A DNA stretch of 63,561 nt, counting the filler, from Reclinomonas americana ATCC 50394 (Eukaryota): the NCBI GenBank assembly GCA_048213135.1. It is 25 parts of 25 records of this genome, joined end to end, with 100 filler letters (N's around TTAATTAATTAA, not from the genome) between each part and the next. Parts side by side here need not be neighbours in the genome. Positions count along the whole stretch, not along the records: positions 4,531 to 6,543 come from AFZH01024294.1; positions 6,644 to 8,489 come from AFZH01024295.1; positions 8,590 to 11,536 come from AFZH01024296.1; positions 11,637 to 13,856 come from AFZH01024297.1; positions 13,957 to 16,692 come from AFZH01024298.1; positions 16,793 to 19,645 come from AFZH01024299.1; positions 19,746 to 21,399 come from AFZH01024300.1; positions 21,500 to 24,133 come from AFZH01024301.1; 17 more parts are not named here. One strand, written 5' to 3'. The stretch's first letter is position 1; the number at the start of each line of letters is the position of its first letter. Under the pieces are notes generated by a model. It was not told where the DNA came from and searched no databases. It worked only from the letters and a program-made list of their open reading frames with translations. Below, in pieces: positions 4,531 through 61,975 of the stretch. The position numbers and the translations under genes were made by a program.

Positions 4531-7500
4531 GCAGCACACCCGTCAGGAAACCTTGTGGGAACGAGAAGCCAGAGATCCAGTAGGCCTTTGGTGGGCCGTT
4601 CTCCAACCAATCACGCAGGAATTCCACACGCTGAACACGAGTGAGTCATCGACCCGGCCACCACACACAGCGTAAGCACGTCACACACCTTGACCAAATC
4701 AATGACCCACGAACTGAGCGGCTTGGTGGACGGGTAGGCCGCCTTGGCCCAGTTGTTCGGCACCTTTTGGTACAAGAAGCTGACGTACATGGCCTCCAGC
4801 TCGGCGCTCATGACCACCAGGCCCTTGATAGCCTTTTGCAGATCCACCAGCGAGTTACGCATGATGCGCAGCAACTTGTTGAAGGAGTCGAGCTCCTGTG
4901 ACAGCACCGTGCCGAGCGAGTTCAGCGAACCGTCCGGCATGCGCGCAAAGCTGGAGTGGTGCGCCTTCTTGCGATCCAGCGCCGCCGGCAGACGAGAAAG
5001 GATGTCGCTGGCCAGCTCGTTGACGGTGGCATCGGGTCCAGAGGCCTCCTTCTTGCTGCTGCCTTCGCCGTCTTCCTCCGACTCGTCGCTGCCGCCCGAC
5101 GCACCTCCGCCGCGCGGTTGCATGAGAATGATGGAGTCCAGCACAATTCTCGACTCCATGGTCTGGAACGAGATCTGCGCGTTCGGGTGCAGGCCAAACA
5201 CTTGTGGCGTCTCGTCACGCGGCAACGCCTTGACGTAGTCCAACACGCCCTGGAAGCCAGCGTCGGTAGACGGCGGGTGGTACACACCTGCACACACACA
5301 CACGCCAGTAAAATACAGTGAGTGAATCGTGAAGTGGAAAAAAGAAGCACAGCGTGGCGACACAGACCATCTTCGGAGAACATGTAGTCTTCGCGCAACA
5401 CCGCCGGCGTAAAGTACGTGTTGAGGATGGAGTTGACACAGCGGAGATCCAAAAAGTCGGTGACACGACCGCCGTAGTTGATGGTGCCGAGAATGTAGCG
5501 CAGAGCAATCCACGGCACCTCCTCCTGCTCCTCCAGGTACATGCGCAGCGACTGCACCGAGGCGCTGAGGTCCGAGTTGTTCCACTCGTAGGGAATGTTC
5601 CAGCCATTGGGTCCGAACTTGCGGCGCTCTTGCAGCACGGCGTGGAAGAAGGCCAAGCTGAACAGCAGGCGCTGCCACACAGCTGGCTTTGGCGAATCCA
5701 TGTACGCGCTCTCACCGAGATCGATGAAGGAGCGAGTAATGTTGGCACGCAGTCCCTTGGGCGGCTGCGCAGACACACACACACGCGCGTGAGTTCTCCG
5801 TTGACCAGCTAAAGCTGAGCAGCAACGTGAATGGTGCGCACCTCATTGGTGAGCTTGATACCACCCTGCAGAATGGACACTGGGAACTTGGGCGTCGGCA
5901 TCGACGTGAGCCAGAGGCGGAAATCGGGATGCAGAGACGCAGGGTCGAGACCCTCCAGGATGCGCTCCAGTTCTGGCAACCATGAAATCGACAAGTGGCA
6001 GTTCTGCAGACAGACCCACTCGCCGCGCTTGGAGCCTTCGTCAATGTCCTGGCGCGCAAAGCCACCTTGGCCTTGACCAAGAGAGCGCATGCGGTAGCGA
6101 CCATCCATGCCATTCTCTCGCGCAAATGCCAAGAACATGCTCGCTGGATCGGCGCCGGGCGACAGCACAAAGATGATGGGTGTGGTGTTGGTGGAGTCCT
6201 TGAAGGTGCCGCCGAGGTTGAAACCCGGAGCATCGGCAAAGGTCGCACCAAGTGTTTGCAGCACCTACATGCCCATCAAACGATAACCCACGTGAGTCAT
6301 TCTGCTCCACAATTTCACATCGCGAGCGAGGGAGAGAGCGGAGGCAACGCAACGTATTCCTTGTTCGAGAACAGCAACTTCTCTTCGCGAATGACGCGGT
6401 AGAAAATGAAGCGCTGCCACAGCGTAAATGAGTCGTGGAACGGCTCCGGGAGCGGCAGCGTGTACGGTCGCTCGTCCTCCCACAGCGGCCTCCATGCCTC
6501 GCCTGTGGCAGGGTCAGCATGGAATTCACAGAGACAGGAGGGGNNNNNNNNNNNNNNNNNNNNNNNNNNNNNNNNNNNNNNNNNNNNTTAATTAATTAAN
6601 NNNNNNNNNNNNNNNNNNNNNNNNNNNNNNNNNNNNNNNNNNNTGAGCAGAGAGATAATGGCGTCGAGGCGCTCCTCGTGCACCTCAGAGCGCGTTGAGC
6701 GGTCGAGCACACGTCCGAACAGCTGCTTGTAGAACTGCAGCGAGGTCTGGTACATGGGGTCGAGGGCGGCCAGATCCACCACCACAAAGTACAGCAGCGA
6801 GCCACGAGTGGCGACCGTGCGGTACGAGTTACGTGTGGTGTCGATCTTGGCTGCCGTGTCCTCGGCACGGCGCAGCGACTCGTCGACCTCCGTGGACGTC
6901 TTCTTGGAGGCAGCCAGAGTGTCGATGAGGTCGTCCGTGTCGAGAATGTCATCACCGGCCTCGGCAAGCAGCTTCAAGATGCGATCCTCCAGCTCCTTCA
7001 GCGTGTCCTGGCCGGTGGCGATTTCGACGACCAGCGCGTCACGCTGCTCCTCCAACTCTGGGCGCTCAAAGCGCACCACATCGGCCAGCAGCTGCTCCTC
7101 CAAGCCCATCGGTGTCACAGTAAAGTTGATGATGGTCACCTTGATGGCCACCTCGGGCAGGTAGTGCGGGTTCGGCAGCTTGGTGGTGATGTAGAAGCGG
7201 AAATCGGGCGAGTAATCAATCTCCTTGTCGCCCAGACGAATCGTCTGACGAGCTCCAGACTTGACAATCTGCTTCGACAGAACCGGTTCTGTACAGGAGA
7301 AGAGAACAACAGTGTGAGTCTCCAGTCGTCTTCCCTCTCCTACCTACTTCTTCTCTGGATGACAACTCACCAAGCACAGGATCGAGGCTCTCGCCAACAT
7401 TCTCCAGCAGTGCAGGCGAGCCGAGTGTGATGCAATTCTCCAACGTCTGCACCCACTTCGAGTCGTTCAGCTTGAGCACCTTCAGGCCATTGGCCTTCTC

Positions 7501-59900: not shown

Positions 59901-61975
59901 ANNNNNNNNNNNNNNNNNNNNNNNNNNNNNNNNNNNNNNNNNNNNAGTTGCAATCGTGAGTGCAAACGCACGTGGTCGAGAGCGTGGCAACGATGGTGCC
60001 AACGGGTGCAGGCACTGGCGAGTACGTGGTGGTGGATAGTGCCAGTGCGGATGGAGGCACATTGGCTATCGAGAGACTCGATGAGCGACACAGACACAAG
60101 AAGGCAGAGAAGCACATGCACGCACCTTTGTTGACGACAAACGTCTTGTCAAAGTGCGCGCCGGACGGATCACTGACTCGGACGGTGACTTGCAGATTGT
60201 TGCCCTGCTGGCCTGCGTTGCGGAGTACCAACTGCGAGCCGACAATGTCGAAGAGAGCACTATTCGCACCACCGACGATCGACAGTGACAGTGCGTCGTT
60301 CGCATTGCCGTCGACTCCAGTGAGTGTGCCCACCACTGTATTGGCAGCAGGTGTGGGCGGTGCGTAGGTCAAGGAGGATAAAAGAACGTCGGTTGGGGCC
60401 ACGGGTACGTATACTGCAAGCGACCGAGAGAGTGAGCATCGATACTTTCGATACTTTCGTCAAACACCAAACATCGTCACTCACCGTCGTTGATGGTAAA
60501 GAACTTGGCCAGCGTTTGTCCACTGGCATTGGTTGACAGCACCTGCACTTGCAGACCGGTACCTCGCTGTCCCGCAGCTCGGATTACCAGTTGATCCCCA
60601 ATGACCGAGAAGACAGCAGCATCGGTCCCGCCCACCACGGCGTAGGTGTAGGGTGAAGAGGCAGATGTGTCGGTTGTGGAGAGCGTGCCAACCACCGTAT
60701 TCGCGGTCGAGGTCGGTGGCGTGTAGGTGGTCGAGGAGAGAGCCATGTCCACCGGGCCAACTGCGCCACCGATATGTCAGAAACCAGCAAAGAAAAAGCT
60801 CAAACCATGGAGAAAGACAACGCACTTGATGTGATAGTGAATGTGGCCTGTGACGATCCACCGGCACCGTCGCTTACCGTCACGACGACTTGCAGACTCG
60901 AGCCGACCAGACCCGCGACACTGGAGCGCAGAGTGGTTCCATTGATCTCAAACGACGCCTGATCGGCACCGCCAGTGATGGAGAACGACAGTGTCTGGCC
61001 CGTGTTCACGTCGGTCGCCGAGAGCGTGCCAATAGTTCCATGGAGAGCGAGAGGCGGCTGGCACACCAGGGTCGACAGCACGGGCGACGACGGCGACACA
61101 TTGGCTGCACACAGACGGCGTGACTAACTCTAAAAAGGCAAGTTGTGTGAGCGTATGTGTGTGTGAATGCACACCTTCGTTAATGACAAATGAACTTGCG
61201 GCTGAGCCACCGGCGCCGTCGCTGACCGTCACTGTCACTTGCAGGCCGTTGCCAGTGAGACCGGCCACATTGGCACGGAGACTGTTGCCGCTGATATTGA
61301 ACATGGACTGATTGGCGCCTCCAGTGACAGCGTACGTCAGCGTCTGGCCCGTGTTCACGTCGCTTGACGAGAGCAGGCCAATGACACCGTTGAGTGCCAG
61401 CGGAGGAATGTAGGTGTTGGTCGAGATCTAGAGGGTGGGATCAGTTGGAGACACATTGGCTGCGATTCACGTGAGTATGGCAAACATCATACGCACAATG
61501 GCAATGCGAATCACCTTCGTTGATGAGGAAAGTGCTCGAGTTGCTGCCACCAGCGCCGTCGGAGACGGTGACCGTGACTTGCAGGCCGCTGCCGGTGAGG
61601 CCCGCGACAGCAGAGACAAGATCGGAACCGACCAGAGAGGAGGAGGCCTGCGCGGTACCGCCGGTGACGGTGAACGACAGCGTCTGGCCCGTATTCACGT
61701 CGGTGGCGGCGAGTGTGCCAATGGCGGCTACAAGGGCCAGCGGGGGGACATACGTGCTGGTGGACAGCACTGGTGCAGTCGGTATCACATTGCCTGTGGA
61801 CAAAGAAGCACAAATGAGAACCTGCAAGCCACGAAACACTGAATGCAGTTCTCGCAACTCTCGTTGATGATGAACGTCGATGAGTTTGAACCACCGGCTC
61901 CGTCTGGCACAGTGATTCCTCTTGAAGACCGCGCTGACGTAGGTTGGCGTGAGCTGCGCGCGCAGTGTCGACAAG
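53978..61975 (-). CDS. Large cadherin-like repeat protein, about 20 repeats over three contigs, multi-exon, with several indels
   Basis: Same repeat consensus and phase-1 boundary introns as 26796-29094. Confidence 0.85.

Follow-up and report, generated by a model that had tools for sequence, protein, structure and literature searches.

The stretch of DNA analysed here (the window, 63,561 bases) comes from the Reclinomonas americana ATCC 50394 assembly GCA_048213135.1 and consists of 25 contigs joined by spacers of N44 + TTAATTAATTAA + N44. The introns of its eukaryotic genes begin with two kinds of 5' splice donor. The first is varied on the intron side and usually follows an exon ending in G; the second begins with the invariant hexamer GTTGCG and nearly always follows an exon ending in another base. 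The junctions, the division into two types, the link to the last base of the exon and the 3' signals common to both types are documented below. The preferred reading, to which about an even chance can be given, is that these are two donor kinds in real GT-AG introns of the U2 type, belonging to one intron-rich flagellate, and that the second kind is read in a shifted register, most likely by a U1 small nuclear RNA (snRNA) with a changed 5' end.

A census was made of 47 curated introns in five genes: a dynein heavy chain, U2AF35, a gene with FYRN and FYRC domains (the FYR gene), a TPR_19-containing gene and a tandem-repeat protein. The TPR gene is present as three paralogs and is counted by paralog a only. 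A dynein junction near 9765-9541, the junction after 56649, the region 57288-57194 and a candidate at 12017 are left out. GTTGCG begins 15 of the census introns (type 2); the 32 other donors are type 1. The GTTGCG share is 2/9 in dynein, 2/4 in U2AF35, 1/2 in the FYR gene, 2/3 in TPR and 8/29 in the repeat protein. An earlier note on this DNA had counted 14 independent introns; this is too many, since five of its seven repeat-protein sites share one unit position. The 15 census introns stand for no fewer than 11 positions without homology to one another, spread over five unrelated genes.

Over the whole window the hexamer shows no enrichment: both strands together hold 62 copies where 55.9 +/- 7.7 are expected, a count equalled or exceeded in 25 of 100 shuffles. 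Its signal becomes visible only when copies are sorted by strand and place. The 13 contigs for which the gene strand is known hold 34 copies in sense and 11 in antisense; the sense copies are 19 donors, 3 candidate donors and 12 located elsewhere. The heptamer GTTGCGT occurs 18 times in sense and 5 times in antisense on these contigs. The 18 sense copies comprise 14 donors, 3 candidate donors and 1 intron-internal copy, with none in confirmed exons. Only 0.48% of antisense GT dinucleotides begin GTTGCG; against this background, 15 of 47 curated introns is a highly significant excess (p=1e-23).

The two types differ most clearly in the last base of the exon (position -1). This base is G in 1/15 type 2 introns vs 28/32 type 1 introns (Fisher p=1.2e-7), which ties GTTGCG to a non-G exon end. 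The difference holds within the repeat protein alone (1/8 vs 19/21, p=1.7e-4) and outside it (0/7 vs 9/11, p=0.002). The exon base before type 2 donors is A in 5 cases, C in 4, T in 5 and G in 1. Over all 18 sites listed by the earlier note, -1 is G only once, in agreement with its statement that GTTGCG nearly always follows a non-G base.

On the intron side the pattern is reversed. Positions +1 to +6 are invariant in 15/15 type 2 introns, and +7 is T in 11, C in 3 and A in 1. Type 1 donors have G (21), A (4), C (4) or T (3) at +3 and G at +5 in 26/32; they include GTGAGT, GTGCGT, GTGTGT and GTCTGT. The earlier note was right that GTGAGT and GTGCGT donors coexist with GTTGCG. Donors of the GTGCG(T/C/A) type occur, and GTGCG(T/C) accounts for 9/32 of type 1. 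GTTGAG is found at none of the 47 census donors. That GTTGCGT is GTGCGT with one extra U, as had been suggested, is supported by the census: GTTGCG donors resemble the local GTGCG(T/C/A) donor plus one U, and the base composition at their +7 parallels that at +6 of the GTGCG donors. Type 1 donors appear to be anchored on the exon, with a loose intron side; type 2 donors appear to be anchored on the intron and to need nothing from the exon.

Eighteen census introns follow a non-G exon end: 14 of these begin GTTGCG, 2 GTGAGT, 1 GTGCGT and 1 GTCGCG. The repeat protein provides a natural experiment inside one gene family, as 22 introns lie at a single inter-unit position. GTTGCG begins five of these, and in 4 the exon ends in a base other than G; of the remaining 17, 15 have G at -1.

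Some further donors carry GT or G one base late: GTTTCGT at 20125 (plus strand; chosen by a gene parser only), GTCGCGG at 59062 (minus) and GTACTGT at 12146 (plus). They may be looser members of type 2.

GTTGCG was found at 18/18 coordinates of the earlier note on the stated strand, and by homology, ortholog, paralogs or repeat spacing each site appears to be the only or the best GT-AG junction. All 18 hold, and the recurrence claimed for the motif holds with them; the list had omitted one donor (59648) and three candidates (12017, 14469 and 17306). In the list below, "parser" denotes a motif-free gene parser that uses only codon usage, GT, AG and stops, and L011 is a metagenome contig with the same dynein gene.

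11246 to 11311, minus strand: dynein heavy chain intron, 66 nt, donor GTTGCGTAA; stop if read through, L011 intron in the same place, parser
6265 to 6353, minus strand: dynein heavy chain intron, 89 nt, donor GTTGCGTTG; sole GT-AG solution in homology refinement, parser
51168 to 51174, minus strand: donor GTTGCGT of U2AF35 exon 1; acceptor on the next contig (last intron base 50401), match to U2AF23
50221 to 50280, minus strand: U2AF35 intron 2, 60 nt, donor GTTGCGCGC; sole in-phase GT before a stop
46494 to 47184, plus strand: FYRN/FYRC intron, 691 nt, donor GTTGCGTGA; FYRN 33-60 just upstream, FYRC 2-22 from 47188, PDB 2wzo residues 36-64
12317 to 12379, plus strand: TPR paralog a intron, donor GTTGCGTAT; paralog alignment, frame enumeration
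12614 to 12679, plus strand: TPR paralog a intron, donor GTTGCGTAC; paralog alignment, frame enumeration
14781 to 14787, plus strand: TPR paralog b donor GTTGCGC, copy of 12317; paralog alignment
15085 to 15091, plus strand: TPR paralog b donor GTTGCGT, copy of 12614; paralog alignment
17628 to 17634, plus strand: TPR paralog c donor GTTGCGT, copy of 12317; paralog alignment
17938 to 17944, plus strand: TPR paralog c donor GTTGCGT, copy of 12614; paralog alignment
61794 to 61858, minus strand: repeat-protein inter-unit intron, phase 1, donor GTTGCGAGA; unit spacing
59572 to 59648, minus strand: repeat-protein intra-unit intron, donor GTTGCGTCG, absent from the earlier list; parser, unit match
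58678 to 58741, minus strand: repeat-protein intra-unit intron, donor GTTGCGCTC; unit match
55521 to 55592, minus strand: repeat-protein intron upstream of a 17-nt micro-exon, donor GTTGCGTTA; unit match
55437 to 55503, minus strand: repeat-protein inter-unit intron, donor GTTGCGTAC; the only GTTGCG donor after G
54246 to 54316, minus strand: repeat-protein inter-unit intron, donor GTTGCGTCG; parser, unit spacing
28347 to 28432, minus strand: repeat-protein inter-unit intron, donor GTTGCGTAT; unit spacing
26907 to 26984, minus strand: repeat-protein inter-unit intron, donor GTTGCGCTG; unit spacing
12017 to 12080, plus strand: candidate extra TPR intron, donor GTTGCGTTT, with copies at 14469 and 17306; one of three GT-AG solutions, paralog indels inside

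Of the 36 introns that the parser predicted, 6 begin with GTTGCG (6353, 11311, 50280, 54316, 59648 and 58741). Dynein donors were placed by spliced alignment of the contigs to eight long dynein proteins, which gave 11116 GTTTGC, 9317 GTGAGT, 8145 GTGAGA, 7370 GTGAGT, 6353 GTTGCG, 5841 GTGCGC, 5367 GTCTGT and 4688 GTGTGT. At 6353, the GTTGCG junction is the sole GT-AG candidate within 12 score units when refined by homology. At 11311, the unspliced reading is GTT GCG TAA, with an in-frame stop; the spliced product aligns with 10/10 homologs tried. In the alignment with the L011 ortholog, the exons correspond codon for codon as far as the donor, which reads GGA|GTTGCGT in the window and GGA|GTTTCGT in L011. 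Past the donor the two introns show indels and divergence, up to a common CAG|GC.

In U2AF35, exon 1 encodes 24 residues ending in FYLKI and corresponds to residues 1-24 of Schizosaccharomyces pombe U2AF23, while the exon on the next contig corresponds to residues 25-59. Because the exon matches abut at residues 24/25, the junction after ATC|GTTGCGTGA is exact. On manual reading of the sequence, an alternative GTGAAG donor 5 bases downstream of 51174 breaks the frame, and GTTGCG at 50280 is the sole in-phase GT ahead of a stop.

The exon before 46494 ends two residues past the end of the FYRN profile (profile position 60). In a junction enumeration, GTTGCG, in phase 0, is the only donor that joins this exon to the one at 47185; GTGAGG, 5 bases downstream, is out of frame. 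Residues 2-22 of the exon at 47185 correspond to FYRC positions 2-22 with E=0.07, a weak match in the correct place, and FYRC positions 23-80 are found in the following exon. The earlier note had labelled this gene INTS13; that label is not supported, the profile matches being to FYRN and FYRC.

At the TPR sites the donor hexamer is conserved in all three paralogs. Indels that are not multiples of three appear after the donor, while exon indels are multiples of three. By frame enumeration alone, 12317 would allow three solutions with GT or GC, and 12614 many. Taken together, the six TPR GTTGCG sites are moderately supported as putative donors. In paralog b, the donor GTTGCGC at 14781 has no alternative GT at +6/+7.

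Repeat-protein junctions were placed by plain enumeration against the protein's own repeat unit. Where units abut without an intron, a single residue separates the final D/E of one unit from the N/P that begins the next. Each of the five inter-unit GTTGCG donors restores this one-residue spacing, and all alternatives add residues. The three intra-unit donors (59648, 58741 and 55592) restore a gap-free match to an uninterrupted unit. The 17-nt micro-exon (55504-55520, minus strand) encodes (Q)FTVVD and lies between the GTTGCG introns 55592-55521 and 55503-55437.

The 3' half of the intron is alike in the two types. Median lengths are 69 nt for type 2 and 70.5 nt for type 1 (Mann-Whitney p=0.77). 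The acceptor is AG in all 14 type 2 introns with known 3' end, and C is found at acceptor position -3 in 13/14 type 2 and 31/32 type 1 introns. A branch-like CTVAY motif lies 10-43 nt from the 3' end in 10/14 type 2 and 27/32 type 1 introns, at similar distance; the motif is short and some of these will be chance matches. It takes the form CTCAC or CTGAC in both types. The pyrimidine fraction from -22 to -3 is 0.69 in type 2 and 0.67 in type 1. The U12-type branch motif TCCTTRAY is absent from 14 type 2 and 32 type 1 tails, and none of the 15 type 2 donors, all GTTGCG, has the U12-type form RTATCCTT.

The interiors of the introns share no sequence: mean local alignment scores are 8.0 for pairs of type 2, 8.1 for pairs of type 1 and 8.0 for mixed pairs. 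A 6-nt complement of the intron's own donor occurs in 1/14 type 2 and 4/32 type 1 introns. Because interiors are unlike, complements are rare and TCCTTRAY is missing, the GTTGCG introns are not transposon copies, not self-pairing and not U12-type. Given the common 3' half, both types look like introns removed by the major (U2-type) spliceosome. The earlier note had proposed a second intron class; in the sense of separate machinery this is not borne out, since length, acceptor, pyrimidine content and branch-like motif are alike and there is no U12 signal.

The type 2 donor habit is apparently common to a second genome. The dynein on L011 has 89% protein identity and about 80% DNA identity to that of the window; nine of its introns were found by the same pipeline and a tenth by alignment. 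Its donors after non-G are GTTGCGT (twice), GTTGTGT and GTTTCGT; those after G are GTGAGT, GTGAGC, GTTAGT and GTTCCGT, and two more junctions are of low confidence.

In 89 other eukaryotic dynein loci, the same pipeline and filter gave 43 introns, of which none starts with GTTGCG and one has T at +3; four of these loci repeat identical donors and are probably from one organism. The control loci L036-L038, L040 and L087, with G+C fractions of 0.57-0.61 and GTGCGT donors, have no GTTGCG. Their donors are GTGCGT, GTACGT and GTTCGT, some of them after non-G (act|GTGCGT, cta|GTGCGT); such a normal-register donor after non-G is rare in the window. Ten other related loci were found in genome contigs, all with at most 57% identity. 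In a dynein tree, the window and L011 occupy a long branch; the named DNAH6-like sequences (green-algal, stramenopile, alveolate, fungal and animal) fall in a clade that does not include it.

How U1 might read the two types was modelled by folding each donor (-3 to +9) against a U1 5' end with bulges and loops allowed. With the canonical 5' end, AUACUUACCUG, mean duplex energy is -0.95 kcal/mol for type 2 and -6.47 for type 1, and every type 2 register is weak. In a neutral context canonical U1 gives -7.4 for GUUGAGU and -3.0 for GUUGCGU, i.e. A is favoured at +5. A plain bulge or shift on standard U1 would be insufficient, because the predicted pairing is near nothing and A is favoured at +5, where all type 2 donors have C. 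This C would suit a U1 that carries G at position 5. With ACGUAC in place of ACUUAC, a 5' end borrowed from Mastigamoeba, the means become -5.52 kcal/mol for type 2 and -7.39 for type 1. In a neutral context the best structure for GUUGCGU on this U1 is a shifted register at -8.9 kcal/mol, with predicted contacts G+1:C9, U+2 facing C8, U+3:A7, G+4:U6, C+5:G5, G+6:C4 and U+7:A3. The earlier note had suggested a bulged or shifted register, or a variant U1 or U6 snRNA; the model returns a one-base shift with the ACGUAC U1, while canonical U1 alone, at -0.95 kcal/mol, would not suffice.

The mechanism proposed is as follows. U1 would read type 2 donors one base out of register. G+1 would pair with C9, U+2 would face C8 unpaired, and U+3 to U+7 would occupy the places of U+2 to U+6 in a local GUGCGU donor. 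The cut would be fixed by the GU itself at the later U6/U5 stage. The invariant C+5 predicts that U1, or one U1 variant, has G at position 5 (ACGUAC for ACUUAC). Both the pairing register and the change in U1 are inferred; in the duplex model, the shifted register on ACGUAC U1 would account for all invariant positions and for the lack of an exon requirement.

A number of points weigh against this reading. The census is small. Its junctions are all inferred by comparing proteins or DNA, and in the repeat protein unit spacing, judged in part by eye, decided some of the type 1 junctions. Type 1 donors have A (11), C (10), T (9) or G (2) at +4, which is no clear preference for C. The ACGUAC U1 scores GUUGCGU and GUGCGU nearly equally (-8.9 vs -8.6); after non-G, GUUGCGU is used 14 times and GUGCGU once, and this excess is not explained by the U1 model. 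Two GTGAGT donors after non-G (9317 and 46336, both after T) pair better with canonical U1 (-5.5 and -6.3) than with the variant (-2.3 and -3.1), which suggests that a canonical U1 is also present. Pairing of U6 with type 2 donors, including the extra base, is not explained by the model. Finally, Rfam at gathering thresholds gave no matches in the window, and no U1, U6 or U5 gene was found there. At E<=1, the region 4531-62376 gave 25 matches without a spliceosomal snRNA; 23 of these are generic hairpins near 16861-16965 and 14041-14130.

It is unlikely, if a good deal short of negligible, that the snRNAs are all canonical and that GUUGCGU donors are weak sites, read through a bulged U (+2/+3) or a shift and rescued by proteins (for example U1C, LUC7-type or SR-like factors) or, the introns being very short, by intron definition. 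Bulged and shifted registers, a subject of work by Roca, Krainer and colleagues, function in human cells: in the available part of Tan et al. 2016 (PMC4856993), a shifted register and a bulge at +2/+3 are both demonstrated, and among 10,248 predicted noncanonical sites 68 have a bulge at +2/+3 and 51 at +3. As in these human registers, the +5/+6 GU of type 2 donors lies one base further in, and U1 would pair out of register with the cut staying at GU; the human sites described there, however, are rare and scattered with A-rich cores (GUCAAGU), whereas here an invariant GC-rich hexamer begins 15/47 introns and is linked with the base that ends the exon. Standard U1 is also kept by Thecamonas and Mamiellales despite a C-preferring +4, according to the accessible text of Roy and Bowser 2022 (bioRxiv 10.1101/2022.06.08.495308). 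The use of GTGAGT after two non-G exon ends suits a canonical U1 as well, and introns tend to be short, about 70 nt at the median. However, the mean type 2 duplex of only -0.95 kcal/mol is very weak for canonical U1. GUUGAGU should beat GUUGCGU by the energies given above, yet C+5 is found in 15/15 and GTTGAG in 0/47. An invariant hexamer is also unlike a merely tolerated weak site.

Quite unlikely is an extra U1-like snRNA, fully complementary to GUUGCGU, that works beside standard U1 as a second 5' system sharing U2 and the 3' signals. Such an RNA would explain why +1 to +6 are invariant in 15/15 without any exon signal, as with U11 at U12-type donors, and why pairing with standard U1 is near zero; GTGAGT after non-G suggests that canonical U1 would be present too. 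No such RNA was found in the Rfam searches of the window, however. Position +4 also varies in L011 (GTTTCGT, GTTCCGT), which a perfect helix would tolerate poorly, and a single U1 base change already pairs reasonably.

It is very improbable that the hexamer is simply inherited, through gene or repeat duplication or a transposon-like introner, or that the junctions are off by a few bases. In favour, three 90%-identical paralogs account for six of the sites, another five share one repeat-unit position, and a second GT lies five bases downstream at many sites. Inheritance is countered by the spread of the hexamer over five unrelated genes, at no fewer than 11 non-homologous positions, and by the repeat units, which have diverged to about 40-60% protein identity with the hexamer kept; against an introner, the interiors are without likeness (scores 8.0, 8.1 and 8.0). 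Against misplacement, the downstream GT is out of frame at U2AF35 (manual reading) and in the FYR gene, and it is absent in TPR paralog b.

U12-type introns, which have reportedly expanded in Physarum, are scarcely credible here even with a diverged donor consensus: the donor is rigid, lacks an exon consensus and begins a large share of introns, but it is unlike RTATCCTT, TCCTTRAY is missing (0/14 and 0/32), and the two types do not differ in CTCAC/CTGAC motif, pyrimidine content or CAG acceptor. The likeness to a U12-type system is limited to a rigid donor without exon consensus that occurs alongside ordinary introns; the donor differs, TCCTTRAY is found in 0/14, and the 3' signals are those of the ordinary introns here.

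The preferred reading, a shifted register on a U1 with a changed 5' end, can be compared with known cases of donor change. The human shifted and bulged registers described above are a precedent for it too. In the portions of Roy and Bowser 2022 (bioRxiv 10.1101/2022.06.08.495308) available, Mastigamoeba balamuthi has a U1 candidate with ACGUAC for ACUUAC and donors that prefer GUGCGC, while Entamoeba has a U1 candidate with AACAAAC, matched to GUUUGU-type donors. The present case resembles these co-evolved U1s in its GC-rich donors and, on the proposed mechanism, in a C facing U1 position 5. They differ in having one consensus donor in normal register; that available text mentions neither a GUUGCG type nor a link to -1. 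The same portions (bioRxiv 10.1101/2022.06.08.495308) describe GYGCGY donors in Mamiellales and C at +4 in Thecamonas, both with standard U1. GTGCG(T/C) donors are also common in the window, but an extra-U donor form is not reported in those portions. According to the available sections of PMC8136499, M. balamuthi is also GC-rich (60.7%), carries 3.4 introns per gene and lacks outer dynein arms in its flagellum; kinship of the window organism with Mastigamoeba is a lead only. Neither gttgcg nor gugcg occurs in the available part of the supplementary text to the M. balamuthi genome paper.

Two major 5' splice-site classes are described in the accessible parts of PMC9803359, PMC11732430 and PMC11842720: AG//GU, favoured by U5, and //GURAG, favoured by U6. 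The trade-off between exon side and intron side is similar to that between type 1 and type 2. The intron-anchored class here is //GUUGCG instead of //GURAG, and the usual pairs with the U6 ACAGA box are not available to it in normal register.

No description of a GUUGCG donor class was found in the literature searched, a limited collection. The second, exon-independent donor type appears to be new; the kinds of change of which it is a variant, noncanonical registers and co-evolved U1, are already known. Out-of-register reading of donors is otherwise known only as a rare human exception, and changed U1 snRNAs only from a few lineages with one altered consensus each. Here, ordinary and shifted registers appear to be used side by side in one organism, the shifted register would serve about a third of introns, and a G as last exon base separates the two. 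A wider proposal, which is possible but has the chances somewhat against it, is that this lineage rebuilt its 5' recognition: a G5 U1 or a second U1-like snRNA would read GUUGCGU out of register, so that about a third of introns would form an exon-independent class sharing U2 and the 3' signals. If true, this would be an intermediate between a single spliceosome and a major/minor pair. If the pattern is genome-wide, it offers a natural system for studying how U1, U5 and U6 divide the choice of cut site and how a second donor class originates. In genomes of this kind, a third of introns would escape gene finders trained on GTRAGT donors, and the motif could serve to flag contigs of this eukaryote mis-binned among bacterial genome bins. 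Since it occurs in all five genes, it is plausible, if not proven, that all eukaryotic contigs of the window come from one organism.

The 25 contigs are of two kinds. Sixteen (4531-29094 and 44349-62376) have 54-60% G+C, and intron-bearing eukaryotic genes are located on 13 of these. Nine (1-4430, 29195-44248 and 62477-63561) have 61-70% G+C and long unbroken open reading frames (ORFs), and look bacterial; it would seem that eukaryotic contigs were mis-binned into a bacterial bin. The dynein heavy chain is of the axonemal inner-arm type and spans three collinear minus-strand contigs (11536->8590, 8489->6644 and 6543->4531). U2AF35 is located on contigs 50910-53877 and 48707-50809. The FYR gene is on the plus strand of contig 44349-48606, and introns split its FYRN and FYRC domains.

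The repeat protein contains at least 27 tandem units of about 92 residues on four contigs (26796-29094 and 53978-62376, minus strand). It had been labelled a cadherin. The repeats are weakly like cadherin or Big_9, and the label has weak support: the best cadherin score in Pfam is 22.0 bits, below the cut-off of 28.8. The 91 ORF pieces gave one sub-threshold Cadherin match and two Big_9 matches; one Big_9 match is above its Pfam cut-off. The units are mostly parted by a phase-1 intron at constant position. This fits growth of the protein by duplication of symmetric exons.

The three TPR paralogs (a, b and c) are about 90% identical and lie on contigs 11637-19645. The C-terminal exon (229 residues, 12682-13368, plus strand) has no homolog of near length among 5.8 billion proteins, and an Atlas search with it gave no usable match. 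Long hairpins are found upstream of the TPR coding region at 16861-16965 (paralog c) and 14041-14130 (paralog b). On both strands they score 25-42 bits against a large number of unrelated microRNA-precursor models, very much under the gathering scores, and look like generic inverted repeats rather than known RNAs. Long microsatellites of (CT)n and similar types and hexamer repeats occur in introns and flanks at 50522-50809, 46500-47184 and 51400-51900; when translated, these give LSLSLS or THSLTHSL.

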